Below, piece by piece: positions 8,504 through 59,814 of a stretch of DNA of 64,000 nt; the first letter of the stretch is position 1, and each line of letters begins with the position of its first letter. Source of the DNA: an uncultured Verrucomicrobiae bacterium (GTDB lineage Bacteria > Verrucomicrobiota > Verrucomicrobiia > Palsa-1439); assembly GCA_963812605.1 (NCBI GenBank), contig CAWEWF010000001.1, forward strand, positions 96,001 to 160,000, read 5' to 3'. Under the pieces are notes generated by a model. That model ran no database searches, had not been told where the DNA came from, and saw only the letters and a list, made by a program, of their open reading frames with translations. The position numbers and the translations under genes were made by a program.

Positions 8504-8526
8504 GCGCGGCAGCGCGGTAGGTTGCC

Positions 8527-9160: not shown

Positions 9161-9164
9161 CCGC

Positions 9165-41420: not shown

Positions 41421-41497
<77 letters not shown>

Positions 41498-41547
41498 AAG
41501 CCTTTATTTTACTGGTAAAAATTACTATTCCACTAGCTGTATTTTTG

Positions 41548-41570
41548 TGTTGCAATGCTTTGTTGCAATG
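41548..41570 (+). repeat. 10-bp direct repeat, candidate integrase arm-type site
   Basis: TGTTGCAATG at 41548-41557 and 41561-41570, between tRNA and integrase. Confidence 0.45.
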
Positions 41571-41588
41571 GATAGGATGTTTTTCGTC

Positions 41589-42752
41589 ATGAAAGCCACC
41601 CCAACGACACGCAAGCATCAAAAACTCGTTCATGTTGGCGACTGCCTTTATCGTTCAAGCCGCACCGACGTTTACTATGCGATTTTCCAGCGCGATGGCA
41701 AGCAAGTCAAGCGCAGCCTCAAGACGACCGACCCCGAACTTGCAAAGCGTCGGCGGGAAGTACATCGCCAGAAGGTTGAGCGGCTGAACAGCGACAGCGC
41801 CAAAAACCTGCCGTTTGCCGAATACGACGCTAAGACCAGGGAATTGATCGGTGGGCTTGCAAAGCGATGGATTGAGATTGCCGGCGGCACGATGGAAGCA
41901 AGCAGCCGCGACCGAATGCTTGGCGTGATTAGAAACCTCAACCAACACTTCAGCGGATTGACCGTCCGCAACGTCAACTTGCGCACGTTGGAGCAGTGGG
42001 CAACGGCCCGCCGGGATACCTGCTCCGCCCGCACGTTCAACTACGAACTCGAAACCCTGCGGCGCATCTTGGACTACGGCGCGGAACATGGCATTCTCAT
42101 GGAGAATCCCGCCCGCAAGATCAAACGATGCAAACCTCATAAGAAGCCGATCACCATCCCAACGAAAGAACAATTCCGCAAGATGCTGGATGCCATGCGC
42201 GATAATGGCGGGAAAGCTTCGGCGGACCTGGCCGAAATGCTGGCATACTCCGGGTGCCGCAAGGGGGAGATCGTCGGCGATGCCAAATACTCCAAACCGC
42301 CGATGTTCTGGCGCGATGCGGACTTCGAATTGAAAGTGTTCACTATTACGCGGTCAAAGAACCACGAGCCGCGCACCGTGCCGCTTTTCCCAGCGATGGA
42401 GAATTTCTTGCGGGGGCTACAGGCACGCCGGCCGGCGCCGCCGAAACCAGACGAGCGCATTATCCCGATAGATTCCGCCAAGAAAGCCATCGAGAGCGCC
42501 TGCAAGAAGCTGGGGCTGCCGCAATACGGGCACCACACCTGCCGACACTTCTTTTGTTCCAATGCCATTGAGGCGGGGATTGACTTCAAAGTCATCGCGA
42601 GTTGGTTGGGCCACAAAGACGGTGGCGTCCTGGTCGCCCGCACGTATGGCCATCTGCGCAACGAACACAGCGCAGCGATGGCCAAGCGCATGAACTGGGG
42701 CGCATCCAAAGCCGAACCCGCCAACGTCGTGCCGATGGTGGCGAAGGCGTAA
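41589..42752 (+). CDS. Tyrosine recombinase/integrase
   Basis: Catalytic set intact: SGCR, K (RSKN), HTCRH, LGH, TYGH; N-terminal arm-binding-like region. Confidence 0.93.
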   Translation: MKATPTTRKHQKLVHVGDCLYRSSRTDVYYAIFQRDGKQVKRSLKTTDPELAKRRREVHRQKVERLNSDSAKNLPFAEYDAKTRELIGGLAKRWIEIAGGTMEASSRDRMLGVIRNLNQHFSGLTVRNVNLRTLEQWATARRDTCSARTFNYELETLRRILDYGAEHGILMENPARKIKRCKPHKKPITIPTKEQFRKMLDAMRDNGGKASADLAEMLAYSGCRKGEIVGDAKYSKPPMFWRDADFELKVFTITRSKNHEPRTVPLFPAMENFLRGLQARRPAPPKPDERIIPIDSAKKAIESACKKLGLPQYGHHTCRHFFCSNAIEAGIDFKVIASWLGHKDGGVLVARTYGHLRNEHSAAMAKRMNWGASKAEPANVVPMVAKA

Positions 42753-42773
42753 AGCACAGTGCACATTCTCATC

Positions 42774-42950
42774 TCACTCAGCGCCCGTTTCTTTCAGGAA
42801 TCGTTCAATCTCGCGGAGCGGAAACAGCGGCCGCCGTAAGGCCCGACAAGGCCGCAATAACCCGCGGGCAACAAGCCGGTCAACCGTGATCGGTGTTACG
42901 CCCAGTGCTTTAGCGGTTTCCTGTCGCGTAAGTGCGAGTCGGCTTTCCAT
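42774..42950 (-). CDS. Excisionase-like HTH protein
   Basis: LTRQETAKALGVTPITVDRLVARGLL...FPLREIERFL; convergent with the integrase. Confidence 0.8.
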   Translation of the reverse strand: MESRLALTRQETAKALGVTPITVDRLVARGLLRPCRALRRPLFPLREIERFLKETGAE

Positions 42951-42964
42951 GTTTATTTCCTGCT

Positions 42965-43098
42965 TGGCAGCCATGCCAGACGTTTTATCACTTGCTGCCA
43001 TGAAACTTGTTCCCGAATGGGAACAACATTATCTGCCGGAATGCGCTTTACTCCAGCGCATGGAAAGATTGTACGCCCGACCTCTAACTTGCGTTAGA
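42965..43098. other. Cluster of inverted repeats (candidate oriT or operator region)
   Basis: TGGCAGC...GCTGCCA; TTGTTCCC-GAAT-GGGAACAA (43007-43026); ATGCGCT-N7-AGCGCAT (43041-43061); TCTAAC-TTGC-GTTAGA (43083-43098). Confidence 0.45.
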
Positions 43099-43135
43099 AC
43101 ATTGTGTGCCACCGGGATGACAATCACCTGTACCA

Positions 43136-43489
43136 ATGAATGAGCCGTCTACGTCCGATCAGACAAACCACCGATTTGCCGAGGCCGTGCGGGCCTATGC
43201 CCCGATTGTGCCACGGAAGTGGCAGAAGTTTCTCACGCTCAAGCCGGGGATTGCCGAGCTTCGACGCAAGGGCGCGTCGTACCAGGCCATCACGGAAATT
43301 CTGCGTGCCGCCGATGTGCCGGTCTCGCGCACGACTGTCGCGCGGTTTTGCCGGGCTGTGCTGCGCCCATCCCATCGATGGAAGCAGCGCCGTCCTGCTT
43401 CCCGAAACTCGCCGTCTCAACCACAGTCCTCTTTTGTGGCGCCCGTGAACACCAGCGGGCCACGGATCGCCGATCCCCGGATCATTTAG
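43136..43489 (+). CDS. Small basic DNA-binding protein (TraK/StbA-like HTH, tentative)
   Basis: IAELRRKGASYQAITEIL...VSRTTVARF followed by a low-complexity tail. Confidence 0.5.
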   Translation: MNEPSTSDQTNHRFAEAVRAYAPIVPRKWQKFLTLKPGIAELRRKGASYQAITEILRAADVPVSRTTVARFCRAVLRPSHRWKQRRPASRNSPSQPQSSFVAPVNTSGPRIADPRII

Positions 43490-43757
43490 CCATGCAACGG
43501 CAGCTAAAGATCGTCTCGGCCTCGGCGCGGGTTGCACCCGATTATACAGCTCGGTTGCGGTTGGCTTGTCGGCAAGGCAGATGGCCGGGCCTGGGGATGA
43601 ATGCGGCTGTAGGGAGAATAAATCGACCGAATGCTTGTTGGGCTCGCAGGCCGGGTGTGGGGAGGTTTCGTGTTGGATTTGCTTACTGATTTTGCTACAA
43701 GCAAGTTGCCGCTGCATTGACCCGTCCTGGTGAGAAGAATTCTGTTGGGAGATAATT

Positions 43758-45427
43758 ATGGCAAAATCGGAAGCAAACGAAACGGGCATCGGATTTGAAG
43801 ATACTCTCTGGGCCACTGCCGACAAGTTGCGCGGCACGGTTGATGCCGCAGAATACAAGCACGTTGTTCTGGGCCTGCTGTTCCTCAAATACGTCTCGGA
43901 TGCTTTCGAGTCCCGCCGCGAGGCGTTGAAGGTCGAGTTAGAGCACGACGGCATCGCCGCCGCTCAGATCGAATCGCCTGCTCGAAAGCCGCGACGAATA
44001 CACCGCTGAGCACGTCTTCTGGGTGCCGCCGGAGTCGCGCTGGCCGAACCTACGCGCCCAGGCCCGGCAGGCCAACATCGCCACGCTGATCGACGACGCG
44101 ATCCTGGCCGTCGAGCGCGACAACCCGAACCTTAAGGGCAAGCTGCCACGCGACTACGCCCGCCGCGGCATCGAGCCGGTACAAGCATGGAGGCCTGATC
44201 GATCTCGATCGCCGACATAGGCTTCAAGGGCGACCGCGCCAAGGCCCGCGACACGCTGGGCCGGGTCTACGAATACTTCCTCGGCAAATTCGCCGCGCGG
44301 AAGGCAAGCTTGGCGGCGAGTTCTACACCCCGCGCTGCGTCGTGCGAGTGCTCGTCGAAATGCTCGAGCCTTACAACGGCCGCGTCTACGATCCGTGCTG
44401 CGGCTCGGGCGGCATGTTCGTGCAGTCGGAGAAGTTCGTGGAAGCCCACGGCGGCGCGAAGAGCGACATCTCCATCTTCGGCCAGGAATCCAACCCCACC
44501 ACCTGGCGGCTGGCGCACATGAACCTCGCCATTCGCGGCATCGAGGCCAATCTCGGCGCGCAGCCCGCCGACACGTTCCTGCGCGATCTGCATCCCGACC
44601 TCAAGGCCGACTACATTCTCGCCAACCCGCCGTTCAACGTCAGCGACTGGTCCGGCCAAATCCTGCGCGGCGACGTCCGCTGGAAATTACGGGACCCGCC
44701 CGTGGGCAACGCCAACTACGCCTGGATTCAGCACTTCATCCATCATCTGGCCCCGCCAACGGGCGCGGCGGCGGCGTGGCCGGGCTTCGTCATGGCCAAC
44801 GGCTCGCTGTCCAGCAACACCGGCGGCGAAGGCGAAATCCGCCGCAAGCATCGTCGAGGCCGACTTGGTGGACTGCATCGTCGCGCTGCCGGCACAACTT
44901 TTTTACACCACCGGCATTCCCGTCTGCCTCTGGTTCCTGACGCCGCGACAAGACGGGCAAAAATCCACAAAGGCGCACCCGAACGTCCCGGCGGCCGCAA
45001 GGGCGAGACCCTCTTCATCGACGCCCGCAAGATAGGAACGCTGGAAACCCGTACGCTGCGCGTGCTTTCGGGGGATGTCGAGGGTGACGTGCCACCCGAT
45101 TCCGATACCGGACGCATCGTGTACGCATTCCGCCGCTGGCGCGGTGAGCCGAAGCCTCCTACCTGGGATGAGGCAAAGCACGGGCCATGGGCTTACGCCG
45201 ACGAGCCAGGTTTCTGCAAGGCCGCGCCACTAACCGAGATCGAGAAACACGGCTTTGTCCTGACACCCGGGCCCTACGTTGGTGCCGAAGAAGCGGAGGA
45301 CGACGACGAGCCATTCGAGGTGAAATACCCGAGACTGCTGGCAGAGTTAGAGGAGCAGTTGGCCGAGGGCGAGAGGCTAACGGCGGTGGTGAAGAAAAAG
45401 CTGGGGGGCATCAGCGATGGCAGCTGA
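43758..45427 (+). CDS. hsdM: Type I R-M methyltransferase subunit (multiple frameshifts)
   Basis: [47 protein letters not shown] distributed over several frames. Confidence 0.9.
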
Positions 45428-46634
45428 GTGGCGAGATGCGATTCTGGGAGAATTTGTCGTTCTGCAGCGAGGTCACGATCTCACTGAGCCTGAACGCAGA
45501 AAAGGTAGCGTACCTGTCATGGGTTCCGCCGGACAGAACGGTTTCCATGATACAGCGTTAGCGAAAGGTCCTGGCGTTGTCATCGGTCGCAGTGGTGCTT
45601 CATTTGGGCAAGTTCATTATAGCGAGGTAGACTACTGGCCGCATAACACGGCGCTATATGTCACTGATTTCAAAGGGAATGATCCCCGGTTTGCCTTCTA
45701 CTTTCTCAAGTCGATCGATTTCTCTCGCTACAACTCTGGAAGCGCACAACAGTCTCTCAACCGAAACTTCATTTATCCGATTGCCGTTCGAGTCCCTCCT
45801 TTACCCGAACAACACGCTATTGCGGAGGTGCTAGGGGCGTTGGACGACAAGATAAAATCTAACCATCAAACAAGCCGAACACTAGAGCGATTAGCGCGGG
45901 CGATATTCCGGACGTGGTTCGTGGATTTTGAGCCGGTGAAGGCTAAGGCCACCGGGGCGCACTCCTTCCCCAGCATGCCCCAAGAAGTATTCGACACCCT
46001 TCCCACACGTCTCATCGACTCCGACCTCGGGCCGATGCCTGAAGGATGGAAGGTGGGAAGTATCGGCGATGCAGTGACGGTACGTGGTGGTGGCACACCC
46101 AGAACGAAAGTTGAGGAATACTGGGAAGGCGGCACCCATTGTTGGCTAACTCCCAAAGACCTTTCGGGAAAGCAGGATCCTATTCTACTGTCGACTGACC
46201 GAAAGATTACTGACAAGGGCTTGGAAAGTATAAGCTCCGGCCTTCTGCCAGTCGGGACGGTTCTCCTGTCGTCACGCGCGCCGTGGGGTACCTCGTCATT
46301 TCCGGAGTTCCAACGGCGATCAATCAGGGTTTCATTGCCATGGTCTGCGAAGGTTCCGCTACCTCCCCTCTACGTCTATCACTGGACGCAGTCGGTTATG
46401 GATGAAATCAAGAGCCGAGCGAGCGGAACCACATTCCCAGAGATCAGCAAGACGGCCTTTCGTCCGATTCGTGTTGTGATTCCTGCCAGAGGTCTTCTTG
46501 TTGCGTTTGAGGATTTGGTGGCGCCAATGTTTAACCGAATCGCGGCTACTTGCCGAGAGACCGCTAAACTTGCCGCATTGCGCGACTACCTTTTACCGCG
46601 ACTGTTATCCGGAAATGTGAGGGTCCCGATGTGA
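45417..46634 (+). CDS. hsdS: Type I R-M specificity subunit
   Basis: Two TRDs; PPLPEQ...LDDKI, GGGTP, LRDYLLPRLLSG; compensating frameshift pair near 46283 and 46350. Confidence 0.92.
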   Translation: MAAEWRDAILGEFVVLQRGHDLTEPERRKGSVPVMGSAGQNGFHDTALAKGPGVVIGRSGASFGQVHYSEVDYWPHNTALYVTDFKGNDPRFAFYFLKSIDFSRYNSGSAQQSLNRNFIYPIAVRVPPLPEQHAIAEVLGALDDKIKSNHQTSRTLERLARAIFRTWFVDFEPVKAKATGAHSFPSMPQEVFDTLPTRLIDSDLGPMPEGWKVGSIGDAVTVRGGGTPRTKVEEYWEGGTHCWLTPKDLSGKQDPILLSTDRKITDKGLESISSGLLPVGTVLLSSRAPWGTSSFPEFQRRSIRVSLPWSAKVPLPPLYVYHWTQSVMDEIKSRASGTTFPEISKTAFRPIRVVIPARGLLVAFEDLVAPMFNRIAATCRETAKLAALRDYLLPRLLSGNVRVPM

Positions 46635-47762
46635 GTGAGACGACCGCCGGTAATCAACCCGAGTCGGAATCTCTGACGCCTGCGAGTAGTCTAATCGAGT
46701 GGCGAAGTACCCGTGAAGAGGCCCGGTACCGGGAATGGTGCGTGACCACGTATGAAATGGTCGAATTGGGGCCGGAGAGTTTTCATCCTGCAGATATACT
46801 TGATAAGTTGGGCACTGACGCCGCTCGCCGAGGGCGAGCGGAGGCCTACGCCTCGTTTCGCAACGAGGTGGAAGAGAAGGTCTGCGAACAATTTCCTTCC
46901 CCCGTAGCAGTCCCCTTTCATGCATTTTTGCATGGAACCTAGTGACCCGCTTCAGCGTCTTCACCGACTTCGTGACGCATGGGAGGGGCTAATTCAACTT
47001 ATCTGCGCCCTATCCTTGGCAGAAGCTGCCGACTCACACTCAGGCATTTCAGGTTTCAAGATCCGTGAAAGCGAGCAGGTGAGTCCGAGGGACTGTAGGG
47101 CGAGAGACTTGGTGAGCGACAAGCTTGCCACACGGATAGGAATAACCGAGGCGCTGTTGAGCCGATTTCGAGTCTTAAACATCGCGACGGAGCTAACTGG
47201 GCTTCTACCACCCGGGATTATTTCAGAAATACGCAGACTCAACTCTGTGAGAAATGAGTTTTCTCACAGTGGGGCGTTGTCGGACATTCAAGCAGTTGCC
47301 TTCATCGATGAAATCTATCCATTATTCAGGGAGATTTTAATTGACGTGGCGGATTTGCCGACTTTTGCATTGATGAGATTGCGGACCATTCGAGCTGGTA
47401 GCCCGTCGGTGGCTGAAGTAGAGTCCCTTACCGGACATGCATTGAGCCGCCGAGTCCGTTCACTTGGGCTCGCAGCGTCTGCTTCCCCCGTCGTTCTGGC
47501 TGCGGGACGGGTGGGAGGCTTGGATCGGGTTCTCGTGCAAGTTGGTTCACGAATACTTGATCTTTCTCCCTTCTACTATGCGTGCGATGACGAGAGCGGG
47601 CATCGAACGCGAGTGGTCTTCTTCAAGGTAAAGAGGGATGGTAAATGGAAATTTGAGATCGTTGGAGAGTCCACGACAATCGACTACGATTCACCTGCCC
47701 AGGACAATCAACTGCATCGATTCGACACGACTCTTGGCAATCAAGAAAGCACACAGAAATGA
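46631..47762 (+). CDS. HEPN-motif protein between hsdS and hsdR (frameshift near 46935)
   Basis: Two ORFs join into about 375 aa; RNEFSH matches HEPN RxxxxH; start and stop overlap hsdS and hsdR. Confidence 0.6.
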
Positions 47763-50700
47763 CGGCTTCATATCTTTCTGAATCCGCCGTGGAAGATGTC
47801 GCCATAGATATCTTTGGCTCACTGCGGTATACCTCTCTGCGCGGCACGGAGGTGGACAGCGCGTTGCTCGGTAAACGTCTCGGTGAAGCCGTTCACAAAA
47901 TAAATCCCGTGTTCCCGCCTGAAACCGTTGAGCAAGTCGTACGGATAGTGCAGCGTCCGCCACACCCGACACTGATCGAGAACAACCGCTGGTTGCACGG
48001 CCTGCTGACCGATGGCGTAGAGGTAGAATATCGCGACACCACAACGGGTGAGAACCGGGGCGGACGGGCGCGGCTTGTGGATTTCGACAACCCGGCCAAC
48101 AATGATTTCCTCGTGGTGCGCCAACTGACGGTGGCCGCGGCCAACGGTAAGTTGATCCGCCTCGATCTGGTTGTCTACGTGAACGGCCTGCCACTGGCGG
48201 TGATCGAACTGAAGGATCCGACGGATGAGGGCGCGGACCTTGGGACAGCAATCGATCAACTTGATCGTTACGTGCACACCGCGCCTGACCTATTCGTGTC
48301 CAACATGCTGCTGGTGGCGAGCGATGGTCTGCTAACGCGCGTTGGCTCGATCACCAGCGGGCGGCAGCGCTTCATGCCGTGGCGTCCAGCTAGAGGTGGT
48401 GACCCGACGCTGGAGGCGCTGATACGCGGCGCGTTCGAGCCGGTGGCGTTGCTCGATTACCTACGCTCATGCGTGGTGTTTGAAGAGGATGAGCGCGGGA
48501 ACATCGCGAAGAAGGTTGCGGGCTATCATCAATTTCGCGCTGTCCGTGATACCCGTGCCAAGATACTGGCTGCGTTGAAGCCTCCGGCGGGTATCAACAC
48601 GACCTCCGAAGCGGGCAAAGGTGGCGTGGTATGGCACACGCAAGGTTCGGGCAAGTCGCTCACGATGCTGATGCTCGCAGGCGCGCTGATTCGCGAACCG
48701 GCAATGGCCAACCCAACCATTGTCATGGTGACGGACCGCAACGACCTGGACGCCCAGCTTTTCGGAACCTTCGCGGGTGGACGAGCTTTGCTTCGCCAGG
48801 ATCCAGTGCAGGCCGAAAGCCGGGCACATCTTCAAGAGTTGCTGGATCGTGCGTCTGGCGGCGTAATCTTCACCACTATCTTCAAGTTCACGGAAGACCA
48901 TGGGGTTATCAGCGACCGGGCCAACGTGGTGGTGATGGCCGACGAAGCGCACCGGAGCCAGTACGGTTTCACGGAAGGTGGCGCACGCTGGATGCGCGAG
49001 GCGCTGCCCAACGCAACGTTTGTTGGCTTCACCGGGACGCCGCTGGACCGCGACGACCGCAGCACGCCGCGTGTGTTCGGAGAATACGCCGACATCTACG
49101 ACATCCGCCAGTCGGTGGAGGACGGCGCGACCAAGCCGATCTACTACGAGTCGAGGATTATCAAGCTGTTGGTGAACGAAGCCGGCGCAAAAGCCGCCGA
49201 AGCTGAGTTGGACGCGGCAGCCAAGGCATCGGCAACAGGCGAGGACTTGGACGAAACGGTGCGCGTGCCCCTGGAAGCCCTCGTGGGGGCGCCGGAACGT
49301 CTGGATCGCGTGGCGGCGTTCATCGTGGAACACTGGGAAAAGCGCCGGGCCGCTATGGAAGGCAAGGCGATGGTCGTCACGATGAGTCGCGAGATCTGCA
49401 TGGCCTTATATGATCGGATCGTAGCCCTCCGCCCGGATTGGCATGCTGACGATGACGCACATGGCTTTGTCAAGGTAGTGATGGATGCGGGCATTCCCCC
49501 TCAGCGCCGTGGGGAGAGTGCGGAAGCATACGAAAAGAGAATCGAACCTCTGATCGAACCGATTCGTTACCACGGTAGAACGAAAGCGGCCCGGCAGCGG
49601 CTGTCTGATCGATACAAGGATCCGGCGGATGACTTCCGCTTGGTAATTGTCTGTGACATGTGGTTGACCGGTTTTGACTGCCCACCGATGCACACGATGT
49701 ATTTGGACAAGGCTCTGGCGGGGCACAGTCTGATGCAGGCCATTGCCCGCGTAAACCGCGTGTACGGCGAAAAGCCAGGCGGGCTGGTGGTGGATTTGCT
49801 GGGGCTAGCGGACCAACTAGCCGACGCGCTGGCCACCTACACGCAAGCGGGCGGGCGGGGCGAGGCCGTGAAGAAGGTTCAGGACGAGGCCGTGCCGGCG
49901 ATGGTGGGGGCATTCGAGAAGTTGCGGGCGTTCTTCCATGACTTCGATTACGGGCAAGCTCTCAACGCCGCGCCGTCGTCGGTACTGAAAGTGTATGCCG
50001 ACGCTGCGAATCACGTCTTCCTGCAGGACGATGGGTGGAAACGGTTCCGTACGATGGTGAAGGAACTATCAACGGCATTCGCCCTCGTGGTACCGCGGCC
50101 CGAAGCGGAACCCATCACGCCACACCTGGCGTTCTTCCAGCGAGTCCAGGCGATGATTCGTAAGCGGCTGGCGGATGAAGGCGGTTCGGGCTCGCCTACG
50201 AGGCGATCTACCGACATCGACGCCGCAGTCCGCCAAGTCATCGGCGGAGCCGTGGACGCCGGGGAAGTGATCGACCTTTTTGCAGCTGCGGGACTGGAAG
50301 ATGCCAGGCTTGATATTTTCTCCGAGGAGTTCCTAACACGGGTTGCCGCGCTGGAGCAGAAGAATCTCGCGCTGGAGACACTCCGCAAATTGCTGACCGA
50401 TCAAATTCGCAGCACCGAGCGAACCAATCTGGTCCAGAGTAAGAAGTTCCGCGAAGCCCTCGAAGAGGCAATGTTGCGCTATACCAACAAAGTCATCACG
50501 ACCGCCGAGATGATCACGCGCTTGCTGGATCTCGCGAAGTGGGTGCGCGACGTGCAAAACCGTGGTCAGGAACTCGGCCTCAGCACCGAGGAAACGGCGT
50601 TCTATGATGCCATCGCAGAGAATGAGTCGGCGCGCAAGGCGATGGAGAATGACAAACTGCGCCTGATGGCGCGGGAACTTGCGGAGATGGTGAAGCGATT

Positions 50701-50863
50701 GCCCAAGCTCGACTGGTCTCAACGTGAGTCGGTCCGTGCAGATTTGCGGCGGCAGGTGCGGCGGTTGTTGGCTCGCTACGGCTACCCGCCCGATCTATCA
50801 GAGGACGCTACGCAGCTTGTGCTGAAGCAAGCGGAACTCTCGACGGCGAATGGAGAACATTAG
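47759..50863 (+). CDS. hsdR: Type I R-M restriction subunit
   Basis: NGLPLAVIELK nuclease motif, WHTQGSGKS, DEAHRSQY, FTGTP, MWLTGFD, QAIARVNR. Confidence 0.96.
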   Translation: MTASYLSESAVEDVAIDIFGSLRYTSLRGTEVDSALLGKRLGEAVHKINPVFPPETVEQVVRIVQRPPHPTLIENNRWLHGLLTDGVEVEYRDTTTGENRGGRARLVDFDNPANNDFLVVRQLTVAAANGKLIRLDLVVYVNGLPLAVIELKDPTDEGADLGTAIDQLDRYVHTAPDLFVSNMLLVASDGLLTRVGSITSGRQRFMPWRPARGGDPTLEALIRGAFEPVALLDYLRSCVVFEEDERGNIAKKVAGYHQFRAVRDTRAKILAALKPPAGINTTSEAGKGGVVWHTQGSGKSLTMLMLAGALIREPAMANPTIVMVTDRNDLDAQLFGTFAGGRALLRQDPVQAESRAHLQELLDRASGGVIFTTIFKFTEDHGVISDRANVVVMADEAHRSQYGFTEGGARWMREALPNATFVGFTGTPLDRDDRSTPRVFGEYADIYDIRQSVEDGATKPIYYESRIIKLLVNEAGAKAAEAELDAAAKASATGEDLDETVRVPLEALVGAPERLDRVAAFIVEHWEKRRAAMEGKAMVVTMSREICMALYDRIVALRPDWHADDDAHGFVKVVMDAGIPPQRRGESAEAYEKRIEPLIEPIRYHGRTKAARQRLSDRYKDPADDFRLVIVCDMWLTGFDCPPMHTMYLDKALAGHSLMQAIARVNRVYGEKPGGLVVDLLGLADQLADALATYTQAGGRGEAVKKVQDEAVPAMVGAFEKLRAFFHDFDYGQALNAAPSSVLKVYADAANHVFLQDDGWKRFRTMVKELSTAFALVVPRPEAEPITPHLAFFQRVQAMIRKRLADEGGSGSPTRRSTDIDAAVRQVIGGAVDAGEVIDLFAAAGLEDARLDIFSEEFLTRVAALEQKNLALETLRKLLTDQIRSTERTNLVQSKKFREALEEAMLRYTNKVITTAEMITRLLDLAKWVRDVQNRGQELGLSTEETAFYDAIAENESARKAMENDKLRLMARELAEMVKRLPKLDWSQRESVRADLRRQVRRLLARYGYPPDLSEDATQLVLKQAELSTANGEH

Positions 50864-50896
50864 GGCTATTCTCGAAGAAAAAGTTCCGGTGCCCCC

Positions 50897-51641
50897 ATGT
50901 CTTCAAAGAAGAGAACTGGACGGACATTCACAGAAGCCGAGTTCGTCAAGCTCTTCCAAGAGGTGCGACAGGACATCAACGCTTTGCTGCTCCACGATGA
51001 AGTATACTCCGGCGTCATCGAACACTTGAAACGGTATCCGCGTGTTCTTCACAATTTCCCGGCGGTTTTCGGGACGTTCCTGACAGCGGCGCGGACAGAC
51101 ATGATCATCCGACTCGGCCGCATCTATGACCCGGAAGGCACTGGACACGAATCCTGCACGTTGGCGCGGAGTCTCCAGGTGCTACGTGACAGCCCAAGTT
51201 TTTTCACTGATGCGGCCATCACCGCCCGGGCTGAGCGAGGCATACCGAAGGTCCAATCCGGGCTGCCTGCGCTTCCATCGCCTCGACAGCGGACGGGTCA
51301 CGAAGGATTTGGGGCAAATTGAGCGCAGCCGGAAACGTTTGATTAAACTGCGCCACAAACTCTACGCCCACAAAGACCTCGATACGATCCTTTCCGGCAA
51401 ACGGGACGGCTTTCTGGACTCGCACGGCGAGGTCCGCGCTCTCATCGAGCTGGCGCACGACATCTGGAACTATTACTCACTCATCTGGAATGCTTCCACG
51501 CACTCTGACAAGACCATTGGCGCTGACGATTACCGGTGGCTTTTTGAGTGTCTTCGTCGGGGATTGAAAACCAAGTCGCTTGCTGACCGTTTCCAGTTTG
51601 AACGAATCCAGAAGCGACACAAGCGAAGGAGCAAATCGTGA
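50897..51641 (+). CDS. AbiU2-like HEPN protein (frameshift near 51228)
   Basis: IIRLGRIYD...TL and LRHKLYAHKD (R-x5-H) patterns resembling HEPN_AbiU2; all-helical. Confidence 0.6.
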
Positions 51642-51703
51642 GAACTTGTTTGTACCGCGATTGGCGCATATTGGGGGGGCGCACCTTTCAAAGGGCAGGA
51701 GTG

Positions 51704-52351
51704 ATGAACAATCTGTTACACCGATATGAAGTTACTGTCCGTGATTACGAACAGAACTGGGTGGCTTTGAACAAAGTTTTGTACGATTTGTGCAGACGCT
51801 ATCCAGACCACCAGCGGCGCGACGGCGTGAATGCGAAACTCTGGGTCATCGGACGGACGTATGCGACCGGAATAGAGCGCCAAATCAGAACTCAAGGCAC
51901 TCAGGGCAGTTCAATGACGCAATTGGCTGACCACATTTGGAATCATCGCCGCCAAGTGGACACGAGCCTCCAACCTTTGGGCGCGGTTAAAGAGCCGCTC
52001 GACGTTGAGAAAATCAAACTGATTCTCATGGCCCATGGGCAGTTGCTTAGCGTGATTCAGCCACTACTGCGGACCAAACTGTCACCGCGGACGTTCGTCT
52101 CCAAATACCTCCACTTTCATTGTCCCGCTGTCCCCATTTACGACAATGTTGCCGTGTCGGCTTTACGCGGGCTTTGTCCTTTGAGGAAGAATTTCCAAGT
52201 TATCGTGCTTCCCAAGCAAGCCGATGGGCAGTACGGACGTTACGTGCTGCGTTTTTGGCAGCTTTATCAGGACATGCGGCATAGGGGAGAACCGGTTTCG
52301 GTCAAATTGCTAGATGAATTCCTTCTCGCAACGGTCATGGCGAAGATCTGA
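51704..52351 (+). CDS. Hypothetical protein, putative HhH-superfamily DNA glycosylase-like
   Basis: KLWVIGRTY and FVSKYLHFHCPAVPIYD motifs; defence-island context; start may be 51638. Confidence 0.5.
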   Translation: MNNLLHRYEVTVRDYEQNWVALNKVLYDLCRRYPDHQRRDGVNAKLWVIGRTYATGIERQIRTQGTQGSSMTQLADHIWNHRRQVDTSLQPLGAVKEPLDVEKIKLILMAHGQLLSVIQPLLRTKLSPRTFVSKYLHFHCPAVPIYDNVAVSALRGLCPLRKNFQVIVLPKQADGQYGRYVLRFWQLYQDMRHRGEPVSVKLLDEFLLATVMAKI

Positions 52352-52451
52352 GGCTACTCACATGAAGAGCAAGACAGGCCAGACACAAGGCCGTAAGGGG
52401 CGGACTGCGGGTCGCGCGCTTATCAAAGAGTCGATCCGAAGGCCCCGTACA

Positions 52452-55400
52452 TTAAGAATTGGATGATACTCCATTTCGGTCGCATCCATCAACGCAAACA
52501 CGGTCAAGTTGTTGGGATGCTCGCTGGTGATTGCCCAACGCGCGACGCAGTACATCGGCTCGTCCCGGTGGCAGTCCCGCGAACGCCTCGCAGATTTGGA
52601 GAATGTGCTCTTCGTACACAACCATTCCGTAGGTGCTTTTCAAGCATCCCGATAATGACGGATGCGGGTAGATGGTTGACTCCAACCCCTGATAACGACG
52701 CGTGAAGTGTTGTTTCTTGTTTTCGTTCGCGGCACCGGGACGAATCACGCTGACGATAGCGATCAGCCCGTCGATCTGGTGCACATTGCACATCCGGCAC
52801 AATGAGAGCATCGCAGGACTCTCGATGTGATGCACAGCCCGTGCGCCACCGTCCGCGATCATCTCCCACACGGCTTGATCCTCCCACGGCTCAAGACCGC
52901 TAAGGTCAACGGCGATCCCCCGCGAGGCCAGCGACTGTCGGGTGTCTCGCATCGCGGCCAGTCCGCCCTGCGCAAGGATGTCGATCTTGACCAACCCGAT
53001 TGATTCGACCGCATCCATATCGAAATGCGTGGTCGGGTAGCCTTTGTTCGACTCGAAGCACGGCACCAGGTCGGTCATCGGGACACTCGACAGCACGAGG
53101 CCGCACGGGTGCATTTTTGGATAACGCGGGAATCCGTCGAGAAACTGCGCCATCTGCAACGCGGACTTGTAAGGTTCCTCGTTGACTGGCAGATCCCGGA
53201 CCTCCTGTGTTTGTGCGACAGCCTCGACGAGATCGCGGGCCGATGCGTTCGGAATCTTTTCAGTAAATCGTCGCACTTGGTATTCTGATACCCCAAGCAC
53301 TTTGGCGACCTCCGCGAAGGCGCTACGGGCTTGAAAAGTTGAGAGGCCACCAACAACAGCCGTGTGGGCTGTCCCATAACGCTCGAAGATCAGGTCAACG
53401 ACATCATCCTTCCGGTCATGAGCGAAATCCAAGTCGATGTCCGGCAACTTGTTCAGCGCCATCCGATCCTTGTTGAGGAAGCGGCGGAAGTAGAGATCGA
53501 AGCGGATTGGGCAGACATCGCTGATCCGGAGGCAATAGCAGACGAGCGAGTCGGCAGCGCTACCACGAGTGATCCATTCGATGCCGCGTCGTCGGCACTC
53601 CTGCAGGAAGTCCCAGACGACAAGGAAATACTCCTCGTAGCCGACCTCGGCGATGATAGTCAGCTCCTCCTCGAGCTGTGACAACACCTGGCCTTCGCGG
53701 TGCGGGTACCGTTGCCGCAGCCCGTCCAGGACCAACTTCCGCAGAAACAACCGCGGTGTCGATCCATCCGGCGGTTTGAACGAAGGGAAGTGCAGTTGTC
53801 CGAAATCGAAATCAAAGGAACAGCGCTCAGCGATTTCGGTGGTTCGGGCCAGCACATCGTCGCGACCGCAGTAGACCTCGCGCACCTCGGCTGCCGTAAG
53901 GAAATGAAAGTCACCGTCGAGGCGCTTATCGGGATGCGCCTGCCGCAGCAGCGTCAGTGTGCGGACGCTCTGCACGACATCATATTTCCAGCGGTCTGCC
54001 GGCTCGGCATGGTGGATCGCGGGTAACGCGACATCAGCCGCGTTGTAGAATCGTTGCGGGAAATGACGCTCAAGTAATTTATCCTGACTGACTGCGATTA
54101 AGCCGGCTGTGTCGTGCTCCAGAAGCGTCTCAGGGCGAGTCAGAATCCGGCACAGATTCCGGTATCCCGTCGTGTTCTGGACAAAGAGCAGTAATGGCAA
54201 GCGACCTCTACGAATCTCCGCACCAATGATCGGCCTGATGGCCGCCGCCTTTGCGGCGGTTGCGAACTCGACGGCCCCGTGCAGATTGTCGGTATCGGTA
54301 ATGGCGACGGCGGGGAGATGCCGGTGGACGGCGAGATCGACGATGGCCTGGATGGACAAGGTCGAATTCAGGAAGGAATAGTAACTGTGGACATTCAGGG
54401 GGACGTATTGGGTCGTGGTTGGACGAGGACCGGTTCGTTTGGCTGCAACTGAAGAAACCGTCTGTGGCTGCTTCAATTGGCGCTTGAGTAGCAAATCATG
54501 GCCGCGCATTACAACCGAACGCCCGTGACTACCGCGAAGTTCATCGATCACCCGCGATAAGTGACGACGTGCCTCGTGTTGCTGGGTGTCCGTATCCAGC
54601 GGTAGTTCTGTGCGAACGAAGCCCTCATAGAGATTCGAGAACTTCAACGATACCAGCCGCAAGCTGACGCGCCGCTTCCACGCCTGCCTGAGCATGGGTC
54701 GAAATCGCGAATAAAGGTCCGTTTCAAGATCCGTGGGTTCCGCAAGGCTTTCACTGCGCTGATCCTCGGCCATGTCGTTGTAGCGCACTTTGACTGTCAC
54801 TGTCCGGACGCTCATGCCATCTTCGCGTACCTTGGCCATGAGCCCATCTGCCATCCGTCGGAGCGTCGCCTCGATGAACTCCTCGTTCGTCGTGTCCTCG
54901 GCAAAAGTCTCCTGTTGGCCGTAGGACTTGGCAGGTGCGGCTTCGCGTATGACGGGCCGATCGTCGCGCCCATTGGCGAATTCTCTGATTTGCAGGGCCC
55001 CACGACCAAGGAGCATCGCCAGCAAATCGACCGGCGTGGCGGCGATTTGTCCGACGCGCGCCAGACCAGCGGTGTTCAGTCGCTCAGCAGTCTTCGGTCC
55101 GATGCCCGGTAGCCAGCGATTGGCTAGTGGATGCAAGAAGTTTATCTCATGTCCGCGTGGGACCATCGTGAACGCGGCCGGCTTGTTTAGCTTCGACGCG
55201 ATCTGGCTGATCAATTTGTTGCTGCCGATACCTTCGCTGACAGTAATCTTGAGGGATTGATGTATAGCAGTTCGGAGCGTCTGCGCAATGTCGGTGGGGG
55301 ATTTCCTCGCGCCGGTCAAGTCGAGGTAGCCCTCATCAATTGAGCCGACTTCGACATCGGGCGTGAAGTCGTGAGCGTATGAAAACATCCAGCGGGAGAA

Positions 55401-55643
55401 CCGTTCGTACTTGTCGTAATCGCCGGGGAGGACGATCAACCTCGGACACAATCTGCGGGCGCGCACTGTCGGCATTGGGGTGAAAACTCCGAATTTCCGC
55501 GCTTCGTAGGATGCTGAAGCGATGATGCCGCGTTTTTCCCCGCCGACCGCGATGGCCTTACCACGCAGACGAGAATCGGAGGCTTGCTCCACCGACGCGA
55601 AAAAAGCATCGGCATCGAGATGGACGATGGCTCGGGATGACAT
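52452..55643 (-). CDS. DinB (Pol IV, Y family)-DnaE (C family, DnaE2-like) fusion polymerase, 3' truncated
   Basis: N-terminal HLDADAFFASVE, ASYEAR, SIDEGYLD, KLNKP and little finger; then PHP HSYYSF/AITD, RGSAADS, PDIDLDF, GLVKIDIL, RPG; homology ends at ADVLRRALG. Confidence 0.85.
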   Translation of the reverse strand: MSSRAIVHLDADAFFASVEQASDSRLRGKAIAVGGEKRGIIASASYEARKFGVFTPMPTVRARRLCPRLIVLPGDYDKYERFSRWMFSYAHDFTPDVEVGSIDEGYLDLTGARKSPTDIAQTLRTAIHQSLKITVSEGIGSNKLISQIASKLNKPAAFTMVPRGHEINFLHPLANRWLPGIGPKTAERLNTAGLARVGQIAATPVDLLAMLLGRGALQIREFANGRDDRPVIREAAPAKSYGQQETFAEDTTNEEFIEATLRRMADGLMAKVREDGMSVRTVTVKVRYNDMAEDQRSESLAEPTDLETDLYSRFRPMLRQAWKRRVSLRLVSLKFSNLYEGFVRTELPLDTDTQQHEARRHLSRVIDELRGSHGRSVVMRGHDLLLKRQLKQPQTVSSVAAKRTGPRPTTTQYVPLNVHSYYSFLNSTLSIQAIVDLAVHRHLPAVAITDTDNLHGAVEFATAAKAAAIRPIIGAEIRRGRLPLLLFVQNTTGYRNLCRILTRPETLLEHDTAGLIAVSQDKLLERHFPQRFYNAADVALPAIHHAEPADRWKYDVVQSVRTLTLLRQAHPDKRLDGDFHFLTAAEVREVYCGRDDVLARTTEIAERCSFDFDFGQLHFPSFKPPDGSTPRLFLRKLVLDGLRQRYPHREGQVLSQLEEELTIIAEVGYEEYFLVVWDFLQECRRRGIEWITRGSAADSLVCYCLRISDVCPIRFDLYFRRFLNKDRMALNKLPDIDLDFAHDRKDDVVDLIFERYGTAHTAVVGGLSTFQARSAFAEVAKVLGVSEYQVRRFTEKIPNASARDLVEAVAQTQEVRDLPVNEEPYKSALQMAQFLDGFPRYPKMHPCGLVLSSVPMTDLVPCFESNKGYPTTHFDMDAVESIGLVKIDILAQGGLAAMRDTRQSLASRGIAVDLSGLEPWEDQAVWEMIADGGARAVHHIESPAMLSLCRMCNVHQIDGLIAIVSVIRPGAANENKKQHFTRRYQGLESTIYPHPSLSGCLKSTYGMVVYEEHILQICEAFAGLPPGRADVLRRALGNHQRASQQLDRVCVDGCDRNGVSSNS

Positions 55644-55742
55644 CTGCCTCCAGTCCGCCTCCTTCGTCGTCCCCGTTCTCGGGATGTTGTGGGCCGGTTA
55701 AGGCAAGGAGGTAGGACCGACAACGAGGACGACGGTGAAGGC
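55644..55742 (-). promoter_or_regulatory. Structured intercistronic leader of the fusion polymerase
   Basis: 12-bp stem GTCGTCCTCGTT/AACGGGGACGAC enclosing ACCTCCTT, which is complementary to the downstream AAGGAGG/GGAGG. Confidence 0.4.
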
Positions 55743-55749
55743 AAATTGA

Positions 55750-56367
55750 TTATTTTCGTTTGCGCATCAAGGCCACCATCACCCCTTGGATGACCAGTTC
55801 AGTCGCGGGAATCAATTTGGGGTATTTGGGGTTCTCGGCTTTCAAGTACGGCTTCCCGCGTTCCGTGAGGAAAGTCTTCAAGGTGCTTTCGTTGTCAATC
55901 AGTGCCGCAACCGTGTCCCCGGGGCGGGGCTCTAAACCATGTTCGAAGACCGCTACATCCCCGTCGACAATGTATTTACCGATCATCGAATCGCCCCGGA
56001 CGCGGAGGGCAAAGGTGCGGGCCGTTGGACGGATGCCTAAAGTCGCGACATCGACGCTGACGCAACCCTCCGCCTCTTGCTTCTGTTCCTCGGCGAAGCC
56101 GGCAGGAATCGATCCGAAAAGGGGAATGTCAACGACTTGGCTACGAAGTTTGTCCAGCGGGGACACAAGATGCAAAGAACGGTCGCGTCCAGGAAGGCGT
56201 TTAAGTTCGCCCTTAGAGATCAATACCCGGATATGGTCTACGGCTGCGGTGACGCTGCGGAAACGGAAATGTCGCGCAATCTCCCGCAGGCTCGGGGTTT
56301 CCCCTGTCGTCTTGTGATGGAAACGGATAAACGCTAGCACCTGTTTTTGACGCTTGGTTAATTCCAT
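55750..56367 (-). CDS. lexA: LexA-family repressor
   Basis: LTKRQKQVL, PSLREIA, Ala-Gly cleavage site IPAGF, VRGDSM (Ser), TLK (Lys). Confidence 0.93.
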   Translation of the reverse strand: MELTKRQKQVLAFIRFHHKTTGETPSLREIARHFRFRSVTAAVDHIRVLISKGELKRLPGRDRSLHLVSPLDKLRSQVVDIPLFGSIPAGFAEEQKQEAEGCVSVDVATLGIRPTARTFALRVRGDSMIGKYIVDGDVAVFEHGLEPRPGDTVAALIDNESTLKTFLTERGKPYLKAENPKYPKLIPATELVIQGVMVALMRKRK

Positions 56368-56403
56368 ACTGTACACTGTACAGTTATCCGATTAGGGTGT
56401 CAA
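56368..56403 (-). promoter_or_regulatory. Leaderless sigma-70 promoter of lexA overlapped by a palindromic operator
   Basis: TTGACA-17 nt-TACAGT-7 nt-ATG; ACTGTACA-G-TGTACAGT (56368-56384) covers the -10 element and +1. Confidence 0.7.
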
Positions 56404-56442
56404 TAGGCTCGAATGGACTGAGGCAATTAGTAAAATGGTTGT

Positions 56443-57201
56443 ATGACCGGTAGAGAAACATCAGCGCACGCCACGCTCAAGAAACTGGCCCTGAATTGGG
56501 CGCAACGGCAAGGGTACCCCATCTGCGGACACGAGATCCGTCTCCCCCACTCCAACTACAGCGCCGATGTTGTGGCATACAGGCCAGCGACCGAGCGTCT
56601 CCCGCTGTCTGGGAACGGAAAGACACCGTCCCGGTTGGTTCGCCAACCGGTTGTGGGAGCTACTGCGGTATTCGAGTGCAAACAAGCGAGAGCTGATTTC
56701 CTGAAGGACTCGCACAACACTGCCGAGACAGCGCGACGGTTGCAGGCGTTCGACGAACGACGGCGGACGTTGGAGCGATTGTTGGGGATGCACCAGCCTT
56801 CCTTGCGGAAGGGCGAGTCGCTGTTTGCCGAATACGACGCCATCGACATTTCCAATTTCGAGCATAAGACCTACCGTAAGGTGGTTCGGGAGATCTCGAT
56901 TCTGCAGGCTCGACTCTATGGCAAGACCAAGTTCGACAAAGTTGCACGGTACAAGTGTGCGAACCTTTGCTACCTGGTGGTCGAGGAGGGAATCCTCCAG
57001 GTTCACGAAGTACCGTTGGATTGGGGTTTGCTGGTTCGGCGGGACGAAGAACTGCTGTTGAAGAGAATGCCGGTGTGGCAGGATGTGCCAGTCCCGACAC
57101 GATTGGAACTGCTGCAGCGAATCGCGCATACCGCAACACGGCGTCTGAATCGGGTCTCGGGCCAGTCAGACGAAAATTCAGTGGACGAGTTGTCTGCTTG
57201 A
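56443..57201 (+). CDS. MmcB-like PD-(D/E)xK nuclease-fold protein
   Basis: EIRL...ADVVAY...FECKQARADFLKD...CYLVV...EVPLDWGLL; divergent from lexA. Confidence 0.6.
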   Translation: MTGRETSAHATLKKLALNWAQRQGYPICGHEIRLPHSNYSADVVAYRPATERLPLSGNGKTPSRLVRQPVVGATAVFECKQARADFLKDSHNTAETARRLQAFDERRRTLERLLGMHQPSLRKGESLFAEYDAIDISNFEHKTYRKVVREISILQARLYGKTKFDKVARYKCANLCYLVVEEGILQVHEVPLDWGLLVRRDEELLLKRMPVWQDVPVPTRLELLQRIAHTATRRLNRVSGQSDENSVDELSA

Positions 57202-57644: not shown

Positions 57645-58319
57645 ATGTGCGGCCGCTACACGCTGTCAACCGATCTCAAAATAATCGCCAAGCGTTTCGC
57701 TGCGACGGTCGCAGACGAGATTCCATCGGTTGTGCAACGTTACAACATCGCACCCACGCAAAAAGTGATTGTGGTTAGCGACGGCGGTCAGCGTGTCATT
57801 AAACAGATGCGCTGGGGACTGATTCCGTCCTGGGCCAAAGACGCCAGCATCGGCAACCGGATGATTAACGCACGAGCCGAGACTCTCGCCGAGAAGCCCG
57901 CGTTTCGCGCCGCGCTGAAAAAACGCCGTTGCATCATTCCGGCGGACGGATTCTACGAGTGGCAGAAACTTGGCGAGGGGAAGCAGCCCCTTCGCATCGT
58001 TCTGAAGAGCCGGGAGCCGTTCGGATTCGCCGGGTTGTGGGAGCACTGGAAGTCGCCAGAAGGTGAGGAGGTCCTGAGTTGCACTATCATCACGACAGCA
58101 GCAAACGAGCTACTAAAAGCCGTTCATGAGCGGATGCCGGTGATTTTGACGCGGGACGCTGAGGCCGCGTGGCTCGACCCGAAGACACAAGACCCTGAGA
58201 GGTTGCTGCCACTGCTGAGGCAGTATCCAGCCGAAGAAATGGAGTTTTACAAGGTGTCCCGTGATGTAAATTCGCCAGCCATTGACGAAGCGAGCAACAT
58301 CGAGCCGCTTGCGGAGTGA
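57645..58319 (+). CDS. SRAP family protein (YedK/HMCES abasic-site protector)
   Basis: MCGRY, RYNIAPTQ, WGLIP, INARAET, GFYEW, HERMPVIL. Confidence 0.96.
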   Translation: MCGRYTLSTDLKIIAKRFAATVADEIPSVVQRYNIAPTQKVIVVSDGGQRVIKQMRWGLIPSWAKDASIGNRMINARAETLAEKPAFRAALKKRRCIIPADGFYEWQKLGEGKQPLRIVLKSREPFGFAGLWEHWKSPEGEEVLSCTIITTAANELLKAVHERMPVILTRDAEAAWLDPKTQDPERLLPLLRQYPAEEMEFYKVSRDVNSPAIDEASNIEPLAE

Positions 58320-58361: not shown

Positions 58362-59814
58362 CTACAACGCTTCCGCCGCCCGCGCAACGCCGCGCAGCAT
58401 CCCCCCAAATACCAGCTGGTGCAAAGGCCAGACGCCGTACCAATATGCCAGTCCCCACAGCCCCACCGGATCAAAAATCGCCGTCTGTCGGATGACCGCA
58501 CCTTTCTCCGCTGATTCGACCACGAACTCCAGCCAGGCGCGGCCCGGCAACTTCATTTCGGCAGACAACAGTAATCGTTTGTTCGGCTCCACCACCTCCA
58601 CCCGCCAACAGTCCACGGTATCGCCGACACGGAACTTCTCTGGATCGCGCCGCCCGCGCCGCATGCCGACGCCGCCCAACACCAAGTCCATCCAGCCCCG
58701 CAACCTCCACAACCAATTGGCATAGTACCAACCGGTCCGCCCACCAATGCGATAAATCGGGGCAAAAGCCAATTCGGGCTTCACTGGCACCCGCATTGAG
58801 CGCACGTCTACCAGCCGGTTCCCAAACCGCACACCGCCCCAGACCCGACCCGTGCCCGAGGCCGACAGCGCATCCGTCCACCGGGTTTGCGCGCTATCGT
58901 GGTCCTCGTTGCGCAATGCCCGCGCAATCGCCTCCGTCATGCCGACCGGCTCAATTGTAAACGCGTGCCGCGCCGTGCCATCTCGCACCACCGTCGGATG
59001 GCGGATGCTGTCAATCAACTTCCGTCCTACCCGCGCATACAACGGCGTCACCAACCCAAGCCACAAGCTCGACAGCCGCGGTGTCAACACCGGCACGGGG
59101 ATCATCCATCGCCGCAGCCCGCGCTGCCGGGCATACTCGCGCATCAGATCGGCGTACGACACCACATCCGGCCCGCCCACTTCGAATGTCGCGGAACCCG
59201 TGTTCGGCAACTCCAGCGCCGCCAACAGATAGGCGAGCATATCATTGATCGCAATCGGCTGGGCCAGCACGCGCACCCACCGGGGTGTCACCATGATCGG
59301 CAGCCGTTCCACCAATGCACGAATCATCTCGAAGGACAGACTGCCAGACCCGATAATGATCGAAGCGCGAAACTCGATCACTGGCACTCCGGCGGCGCGC
59401 AGGATTTCACCAACCTCATGCCCGACTGCGCAGATGCGGCGACAGATCGCTGGCATCCTCGCCCAAACCACCGAGGTAAATGATTCGCCCCACCCCGGCG
59501 GACTTCGCCGCCGCCGCGAAATTCTGTGCAGCCCGCCGGTCTTGTTCCTCGAAGTTGCCCGCCGAGCCCATCGAATGGACGAGATAATACGCAACCGCCA
59601 CACCTTCCAAAACGGGGCGTATGGACTGGGCGGTGACCAGATCACCGGCAACCACTTCCACGGCGACTGGCACGCGTTTACGCAGGTGTTCCGGTTGCCG
59701 CGCTAGGCAGCGGACCCGGCACCCAGACTTCGTGAGTTCCGCCAGCAACCGGCCCCCAACGTAACCGGTGGCACCGGTCAGCAAAACGAGTTTTGGTTGG
59801 ATGTCAGGCGACAT
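58362..59814 (-). CDS. SDR/NAD(P)-binding protein with C-terminal DUF2867-like domain (YbjT-like; frameshift near 59420)
   Basis: TGATGYVG, YYLVHSM, RASIIIGSGS, AEMKLPGRAWLEF, GLAYWY. Confidence 0.88.

Follow-up and report, generated by a model that had tools for sequence, protein, structure and literature searches.

We describe here a truncated member of a family of fused DNA polymerases, found in a stretch of 64,000 nucleotides (from here on, the window) that covers positions 96,001 to 160,000 of contig CAWEWF010000001.1 in the assembly GCA_963812605.1 of an uncultured Verrucomicrobiae bacterium. The open reading frame (ORF) in question codes for a Y-family (PolY, DinB-like) polymerase followed in the same chain by part of a C-family (DnaE) polymerase. 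We consider it quite probable that this ORF is a paralogue, truncated at its C-terminus, within a family of single-chain translesion polymerases that is linked to LexA and belongs to Verrucomicrobiota; the family would represent the published DnaE2B-PolY-RecA module in covalent form. The genome (G000), a metagenome-type assembly of 4.17 Mb in 15 contigs and 90% complete, contains a second fused gene on contig C6 (P0002, 1382 aa) that includes the HHH_6 domain.

An earlier note made from the letters of the window had reported one uninterrupted ORF of 1063 codons, with the DADAFF and SIDE motifs of DinB, a linker, and the PDIDLDF and KID motifs of DnaE. The frame was found as described and all these motifs were located in its translation, including the linker LKQPQTVSSVAAKRTGPRPTTTQ. 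It lies on the minus strand, which had been left unstated, and the plus-strand reading of the same positions is full of stops. The hidden Markov model scan that the note had proposed detected five Pfam domains, all in the same frame: IMS (residues 9-151, E 8e-44), IMS_C (239-338, 2e-22), PHP (416-528, 2e-20, profile positions 2-115 of 164), DNA_pol3_alpha (634-891, 7e-71) and the finger domain DNA_pol3_finger (897-1056, 5e-28). The PolY half keeps D10 and D12 (in HLDADAFF), D103 and E104 (SIDE), and the DnaE half D735 and D737 (PDIDLDF) and D888 (VKIDIL), which we take to be, like their E. coli equivalents, the catalytic residues of each polymerase. The first histidine of the HxH motif of the PHP domain is replaced (NVH). 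The NCBIfam equivalog model for Pol IV, PRK02406, was passed by a small margin (257.3 vs a cut-off of 256; 259.6 for the C6 paralogue), and the window copy scored below every cut-off of the other Pol IV models of this collection.

What had been overlooked in the earlier note is the incompleteness of the C-family half. The NCBIfam models for Pol III alpha align to the window copy only up to about position 731 of 1146, and neither Pfam nor NCBIfam gave a match to HHH_6 or to the remaining C-terminal part in this ORF, while the C6 paralogue aligns to position 1056 of the same 1146-position model. The superfamily cut-off of TIGR00594 (434) was passed by the full-length copy only (584). In the AlphaFold2 (AF2) model of the window copy, built with a 90-sequence alignment, the PHP, palm and thumb regions have a predicted local distance difference test score (pLDDT) above 90 and the linker (residues 379-408) one below 50, and the residual fingers beyond residue ~930 stay at about 45-55, as fits a domain deprived of its remainder.

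Comparison of the two copies located the break. The proteins are 88% identical over 1049 aa and their likeness ends after the residues RRALG, at about residue 1037 (blastp). At the DNA level, window positions 52531-57188 are 81% identical to the C6 locus and the homology ends at base 52531, that is, at codon ~1037 (blastn). The missing 345 residues comprise the rest of the finger region, HHH_6 and the C-terminal part, and elsewhere in the assembly they match only the C6 copy and the DnaE1 on contig C13 (35% identity). A simple frameshift was rejected as the cause: the homology disappears at the DNA level too, and none of the frames further downstream codes for the missing part, so that the truncation is a loss of sequence. 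The DnaE half of the window copy is probably dead and, judged from its sequence, the protein would be at most a Pol IV to which a crippled piece of DnaE is attached, its PolY half and the tail of this half being complete. The earlier note had proposed two potentially active polymerases tethered together. Both catalytic triads are indeed invariant in the family, but the window DnaE is without its last ~345 residues and its fingers are poorly folded in the prediction, so that the proposal probably holds only for the intact C6 paralogue.

In a quick maximum-likelihood tree (IQ-TREE) the C6 copy, that of genome G442 and P0003 grouped together to the exclusion of the window copy (SH-like approximate likelihood ratio test supports of 99, 99 and 95). 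Owing to this placement and to the equal length of their terminal branches, the two copies cannot be considered a recent tandem duplication. The ratio of non-synonymous to synonymous changes (dN/dS, Nei-Gojobori method) between them, at a dS of ~1.1, was lowest in the PolY region (0.033), followed by palm-fingers (0.041), the PHP domain (0.10) and the inter-domain stretch (0.17), with an overall value of 0.059.

Some other members of the family are also interrupted. In three short metagenomic members (P0009, P0028 and P0036) the alignment ends at P0002 residues 876-879, near THFDMD, and short unrelated tails follow. Breaks, or else errors, may recur at this point, just before the third catalytic aspartate. 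Two same-genus orthologues are broken as well, one with an in-frame TGA after codon 537 (L036, G442:C8, 2244-6656) and the other matching as three pieces in different frames (L040, G443:C8, 8165-12511).

The fusion is real and general, not an artefact, and the family is present in hundreds of soil and freshwater Verrucomicrobia. A search with the part of the full-length protein around the junction, as the earlier note had suggested, retrieved 2843 proteins (E <= 1e-3). IMS_C, PHP and DNA_pol3_alpha occur jointly in every one of the best 120, which are mostly proteins of 1300-1750 aa with all six domains, a few shorter ones being without IMS, HHH_6 or the finger domain. Among genomes taken one per species, 569 loci encode a relative of the fusion, and each of the best 80 spans both halves, from query residue ~1-7 to ~1040. 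For the note, homologues that are never fused would have refuted its reading; in 78 of these 80 loci motifs I and III of PolY share a single open frame with the DnaE motif PDxDxDF. The two exceptions are the G442 copy with its in-frame TGA and a 1505-aa single frame missed by the pattern used for motif I. Records from single cells and complete chromosomes are included, and almost all of the 80 loci are labelled Verrucomicrobiota (Pedosphaera, Limisphaerales, subdivision 3), with a few labels from other phyla.

The distribution is nevertheless patchy. The junction query matched 7 of the 47 genomes of the order (E <= 1e-28), and in 401 genomes sampled evenly across the phylum the matches listed contained junction-spanning frames only in G000 (both copies), G174, G330 and G342. 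With a 201-residue junction piece, 47 clusters were found at E <= 1e-30 among all 50%-identity representatives, many of them fragments. One genome of the same class (G005) has the unfused arrangement, with polY (L041, 10083-11606) overlapping dnaE (7075-10137) by 55 nt in another frame. Names of database proteins indicate that annotation pipelines have met the fused architecture. No description of a PolY-DnaE fusion or of its biochemistry was found in the literature searched, which comprised the main texts of the Venclovas-group surveys (their supplements may list it) and the Aravind paper (PMC3765255), in agreement with the earlier note, whose author knew of no biochemical characterisation. 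It is the DinB-DnaE fusion family for which no printed description was found; the DnaE2B-PolY-RecA operon module has already been published.

The conservation of the catalytic sites was assessed in an alignment of 109 full-length homologues. The D, D, D and E columns of PolY were conserved in 105, 105, 108 and 108 sequences respectively, the remainder being gaps, and the DnaE aspartates D736, D738 and D889 (P0002 numbering) in 109 of 109. This conservation suggests that either polymerase site would be active in the family. The first histidine column of the PHP HxH motif is occupied by N, R or H, and because of this variation the PHP domain looks degenerate. ImuB is defined by the loss of the Y-family catalytic residues; with these acidic residues intact, an ImuB identity of the PolY half was rejected.

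The lexA gene lies directly upstream of the fusion in nine of ten fused loci with long flanks and in 72 of the 80 species loci (70 of 74 when at least 700 nt of upstream sequence are available); in 59 of the species loci both genes share the strand, with the end of lexA at most 300 nt from the fusion. A dyad covers the lexA start codon in all eight upstream regions compared, behind a TTGAC-type -35 element, and its half-sites co-vary (TGTAC/GTACA, TGTAT/ATACA, TGGTC/GACCA, TGTTC/GAACA, TATCC/GGATA). It is a putative LexA operator. Verrucomicrobia are said to use the LexA motif TGTTC-N4-GAACA. The spacer of the dyad is of 4 nt in the other seven loci and of 3 nt, together with a GTG start, in the window copy, where either the operator is damaged or the assembly is in error by 1 nt. 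Only the two lexA genes linked to the cassettes score above the LexA model cut-off in the genome. At a third, weaker LexA-like locus (C6, 369727-370276, minus strand) the model matches in two pieces and different frames.

Regarding other partners, the IMS model detected in the genome the two fusions and one stand-alone Y-family gene (C5), and no ImuB-like dead Y-family gene was found with it in this 90%-complete genome. The ImuA model matched only RecA (53 bits vs a cut-off of 150), in what is a weak test since none of 14 control genomes passed this cut-off either. Both results agree with the suggestion of the earlier note that the enzyme would need neither ImuA nor ImuB. A separate, replicative DnaE (DnaE1) is encoded on C13 (by a frameshifted gene), so the C-family half of the fusion is an additional copy.

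The stretch that joins both polymerases has a conserved and a variable part. From the little finger to the PHP domain there are 68 to 219 aa across the family and about 70 in the window copy. Residues 346-388 are conserved and start with ELPL(D/E) (346-350; L347 is present in 109 of 109 sequences), different from the canonical QLxLF, followed by RLAxVVDELRxxxGxxVxLRGHD(F/L) or, in a looser form of the consensus, RLxxV(I/V)DELRxxxGxxVxxRGHD. AF2 predicts a helix at residues 351-373 and disorder after it. The ELPL segment is a candidate clamp-binding motif, which would be followed by a motif similar to the N-terminus of RecA; the same order is described for UmuC, ImuB and many PolYs (PMC6511836). 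A complex prediction of RecA with fusion residues 340-415 scored 0.51, with one control at 0.38, and has no bearing either way.

Two known systems resemble this family. The DnaE2B-PolY-RecA module, described as an active PolY with DnaE2 in genomes without ImuA or ImuB (Timinskas et al., Nucleic Acids Research 2026, PMC12926913), corresponds to the "Bacteroidetes PolY2 + DnaE2" of a previous survey (Timinskas & Venclovas, Nucleic Acids Research 2019, PMC6511836). As presented in these accounts, it has in common with the fusion an active-type PolY linked to DnaE2, the lack of ImuA/ImuB and a lexA often found in the operon. The tail of its PolY has a motif like the RecA N-terminus, which is only suggestive in the fusion. 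There the polymerases are two separate gene products of Bacteroidetes, whereas the family described here belongs to Verrucomicrobiota and has one chain, joined from the PolY tail to the PHP N-terminus (78 of 80 loci). In the canonical ImuA-ImuB-DnaE2 mutasome the Y-family partner is described as an organiser without catalytic activity, with binding sites for the clamp, the RecA homologue and DnaE2 (PMC6511836; PMC12926913), and published AlphaFold models of ImuABC have the ImuB-C domain docked on PHP of DnaE2 (PMC12926913). The fusion is alike in being a LexA-linked cassette with a Y-family module and a second Pol III alpha copy, and in placing the former next to the PHP domain. It differs by its intact Y-family catalytic residues, by a covalent link instead of docking and by the absence of an ImuB-C domain (only ~70 residues, a helix and then disorder, go from the little finger to PHP); in addition, ImuA was not found and the NCBIfam cut-off for error-prone polymerases is missed. 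With stand-alone Pol IV (DinB) the fusion shares IMS, IMS_C, the acidic triad and a PRK02406 score just above the cut-off, and adds to it ~680 residues of C-family polymerase (~1000 in full-length members).

Because there is no ImuB-C and the PolY tail runs directly into the PHP N-terminus, we read the family as a covalent DnaE2B-PolY-RecA module. Full-length members have a length of about 1380-1750 aa and consist, from N- to C-terminus, of an apparently active DinB-like polymerase, the conserved segment of ~40 aa, a variable disordered tether and a DnaE2-like polymerase. The latter comprises a degenerate PHP, palm, thumb, fingers, helix-hairpin-helix and then another conserved region at the C-terminus, and leaves the final ~90 positions of the Pol III alpha model unmatched. 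The peptide tether into the PHP N-terminus would replace the docking of ImuB-C on PHP. Cleavage of LexA would induce the fusion enzyme, the PolY module and its tail would dock it on the clamp and on RecA, PolY would insert opposite the lesion and the tethered DnaE2 module would then extend. We put forward only tentatively, and with somewhat more doubt than confidence, that full-length members are self-contained single-chain mutasomes of this kind, with both sites active in cis, the Y-family one inserting and the C-family one extending, the tether in place of docking and the ~40-residue segment recruiting clamp and RecA. As to the window copy, the gene breaks off at codon ~1037, where it borders on a type I restriction-modification (R-M)/AbiU2 island with an integrase, and it is C6 that encodes the intact enzyme.

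Several observations weigh against this interpretation. The truncated copy shows no decay: its 1037 codons have no internal stop, its dN/dS is low and its terminal branch (0.063) is like that of the intact copy (0.062), what may fit either a recent truncation or the continued use of the window copy. The assembly has indel errors, and the junction at 52531 is known from the assembly alone. The family itself is known only as sequences, and activity is read solely from conserved residues. The C-family half misses the cut-off (939) of the NCBIfam "error-prone DNA polymerase" model PRK05672, with 398.7 bits for the window copy and 510.8 for the full-length one, so that the DnaE2 label derives from architecture and context. 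The inter-domain segment scanned on its own gave no match to DUF4113 or to any other Pfam family, and its hhalign comparison with the RecA of the genome picked residues 24-46 with P values of 0.009-0.06, using a single-sequence template. Finally, a genome-wide scan for TGTNC-N4-GNACA gave 33 matches without an evident SOS regulon; three that were examined lie in or before genes for a helicase-domain protein, an argininosuccinate lyase and a glycosyltransferase.

It could be argued that the truncation is an assembly artefact, the true copy being full-length and the contig misjoined to the island at ~52531. The assembly, of metagenome type with 15 contigs and 90% completeness, does contain clear indel errors (dnaE1 in two frames, AbiU2 and a histidine kinase each in two ORFs). 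However, what is lost at the break is the DNA homology and not just the frame, no contig holds an orphan fragment for the missing 345 aa, the 691-kb contig continues through coherent genes on both sides, and copies with 81% DNA identity are too divergent for a repeat-induced misjoin, all of which makes a misjoin highly unlikely. Another alternative concerns the Y-family half, which might be a scaffold like ImuB that brings DnaE2 to the clamp and RecA, its own catalysis being irrelevant. Such a role is that of the Y-family partner in the canonical mutasome as it is portrayed in the surveys (PMC6511836; PMC12926913), and the conserved inter-domain segment occupies the place of those binding motifs. 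We consider it quite improbable, given that no full-length homologue with its N-terminus present departs from D, D, D, E or from the motifs around them, that dN/dS is nowhere in the protein lower than in the PolY region (0.033) and that this region scores above the Pol IV equivalog cut-off.

The window copy might also be a maintained functional variant, either a Pol IV with a PHP-palm module for docking or regulation or a competitor of the intact enzyme. Despite a dS of ~1.1 from the paralogue its frame has stayed intact over 1037 codons, the DnaE part has a dN/dS of 0.04, the terminal branch does not exceed in length that of the intact copy, the copy has kept its own lexA, dyad and MmcB-like gene, and other short members with divergent tails exist in metagenomes. 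But the pairwise dN/dS reflects mostly the time before the truncation and hence cannot date it, the break coincides with the edge of a mobile island, what is left of the fingers folds poorly in the prediction, the lexA dyad has an aberrant 3-nt spacer and the same end point was found in no other genome searched. A maintained variant appears unlikely on balance, and we prefer to see in the window copy a truncated paralogue of the intact C6 enzyme.

Table 1. Features of the window around the polymerase fusion and in the adjoining island (positions are those of the window).
Feature	Position	Strand	Evidence or remark
PolY(DinB-like)-DnaE fusion ORF (P0001), 1063 aa, C-terminally truncated	52452..55643	-	ORF list, Pfam, NCBIfam
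Y-family polymerase core and little finger, residues 1-345	54609..55643	-	Pfam IMS and IMS_C, NCBIfam Pol IV PRK02406
Conserved inter-domain segment, residues 346-388	54480..54608	-	family conservation, AF2 helix 351-373
Variable disordered tether, residues 389-413	54405..54479	-	gappy, poorly conserved columns, low pLDDT
PHP domain and connector, residues 414-633	53745..54404	-	Pfam PHP
DnaE palm and thumb, only part of fingers, residues 634-1037	52533..53744	-	Pfam, NCBIfam, alignment, AF2
Tail unrelated to the family, residues 1038-1063, and stop codon	52452..52532	-	blastn, blastp
lexA, 208 aa, directly upstream of the fusion	55750..56376	-	Pfam LexA_DNA_bind and Peptidase_S24; TIGR00498 139 vs cut-off 111
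Dyad TGTAC-AGT-GTACA over the lexA GTG start, putative LexA operator	56370..56382	.	comparison of 8 loci
252-aa gene (P0122), predicted PD-(D/E)XK nuclease, MmcB-like fold	56443..57201	+	AF2, Foldseek, alignment
SRAP (SOS-response-associated peptidase, YedK-type) gene	57645..58319	+	Pfam SRAP E 5e-83
DUF2867 gene	58362-59651		convergent to SRAP
Integrase-bearing type I R-M/AbiU2 island adjoining the truncated 3' end	41421..52351	.	Pfam, gene order
tRNA-Arg	41421-41497	-	island member
Tyrosine integrase	41547-42752	+	island member
N6_Mtase fragment	44342-45427		profile positions 36-200 of 311 only
hsdS	45417-46634		island member
hsdR	47759-50863		island member
AbiU2 (HEPN abortive-infection gene), split over two overlapping ORFs	50897-51641	+	
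237-aa ORF of unknown function	51638-52351		nearest island gene to the break

The island that adjoins the truncated 3' end (Table 1) has no convincing direct repeat that could be taken for att sites, and its limits are undefined for this reason. Its R-M and Abi genes look partly broken, or carry indel errors. In this assembly DnaE1 on C13 (~41568-44760; loci L002 and L004) is split across two frames near C13:42880 (VAQI / TFGT) without any homopolymer run, probably by an assembly indel error since the gene is presumably essential, and this frameshift calls for caution against over-reading the split genes of the genome. A histidine kinase gene is likewise split into two ORFs. The sequencing runs listed for the window were two of DNA metagenomes (5% of the sampled words each) and none of RNA, and they provided short contigs from relatives, mostly less than 95% alike at an 85% likeness setting, and none of them covered 51600-52419 or bridged 52531. 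One relative's contig skips 105 nt in frame within the linker and was not counted, its shorter side having only 29 letters.

On the other side of lexA, a 252-aa gene is transcribed divergently from the lexA-fusion pair and was duplicated with the cassette (the C6 copy lies at L010 13649-14434). Its product has 511 homologues, which form a family of Verrucomicrobiota, and every one of them with a name from its source is a "hypothetical protein". No Pfam family matched at E values up to 10, PF06319 included, and there was no meaningful NCBIfam match. In an alignment of 58 sequences E31, D42, E78 and K80 are invariant (E...D...ExK). The AF2 model (mean pLDDT 84) had a sole significant match in the PDB, 3dnx (Foldseek E 1.7e-6, TM-score on target 0.79), a structure of DUF1052/PF06319 that has been classified within the PD-(D/E)XK families (PMC3424549). 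PF06319 is now named MmcB-like. In Caulobacter, MmcB reportedly works together with the translesion polymerase ImuC on mitomycin damage, and its family is said in the same account to be almost exclusive to Alphaproteobacteria (PMC13705206). The neighbour in the window is alike in fold and in the E...D...ExK residues, and differs in being ~100 residues longer, with a helical insertion, and in its occurrence outside Alphaproteobacteria. Going by its predicted structure, it may be a remote nuclease of the MmcB type. Its linkage to the fusion is specific to one clade (3 of 10 loci and 1 of 80 loci). Further along, the SRAP gene also has a copy near the C6 cassette (L010 18322-19044, 75% DNA identity). 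Neighbourhoods of DinB, LexA and SRAP, sometimes with a DnaE paralogue, were noted previously (PMC3765255).

The family bears on how a Y-family protein and DnaE2 cooperate in the induced mutagenesis of bacteria. The partner in the ImuABC system studied is catalytically dead, and for complexes of an active PolY with DnaE2 the evidence so far consists of gene neighbourhoods and AlphaFold models. That a widespread fusion retains both active sites argues for one physical unit, and the fusion offers a single polypeptide for biochemistry and cryo-electron microscopy in which the sites can be mutated one by one. Less is added to this picture by the window copy, a gene broken off where a mobile defence island begins, in a genome that still has a second, intact cassette. 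If full-length members are indeed single-chain mutasomes, they would provide natural "Rosetta-stone" evidence for the predicted PolY-DnaE2 complexes and would be the simplest system for the hand-off between polymerases in bacterial translesion synthesis.

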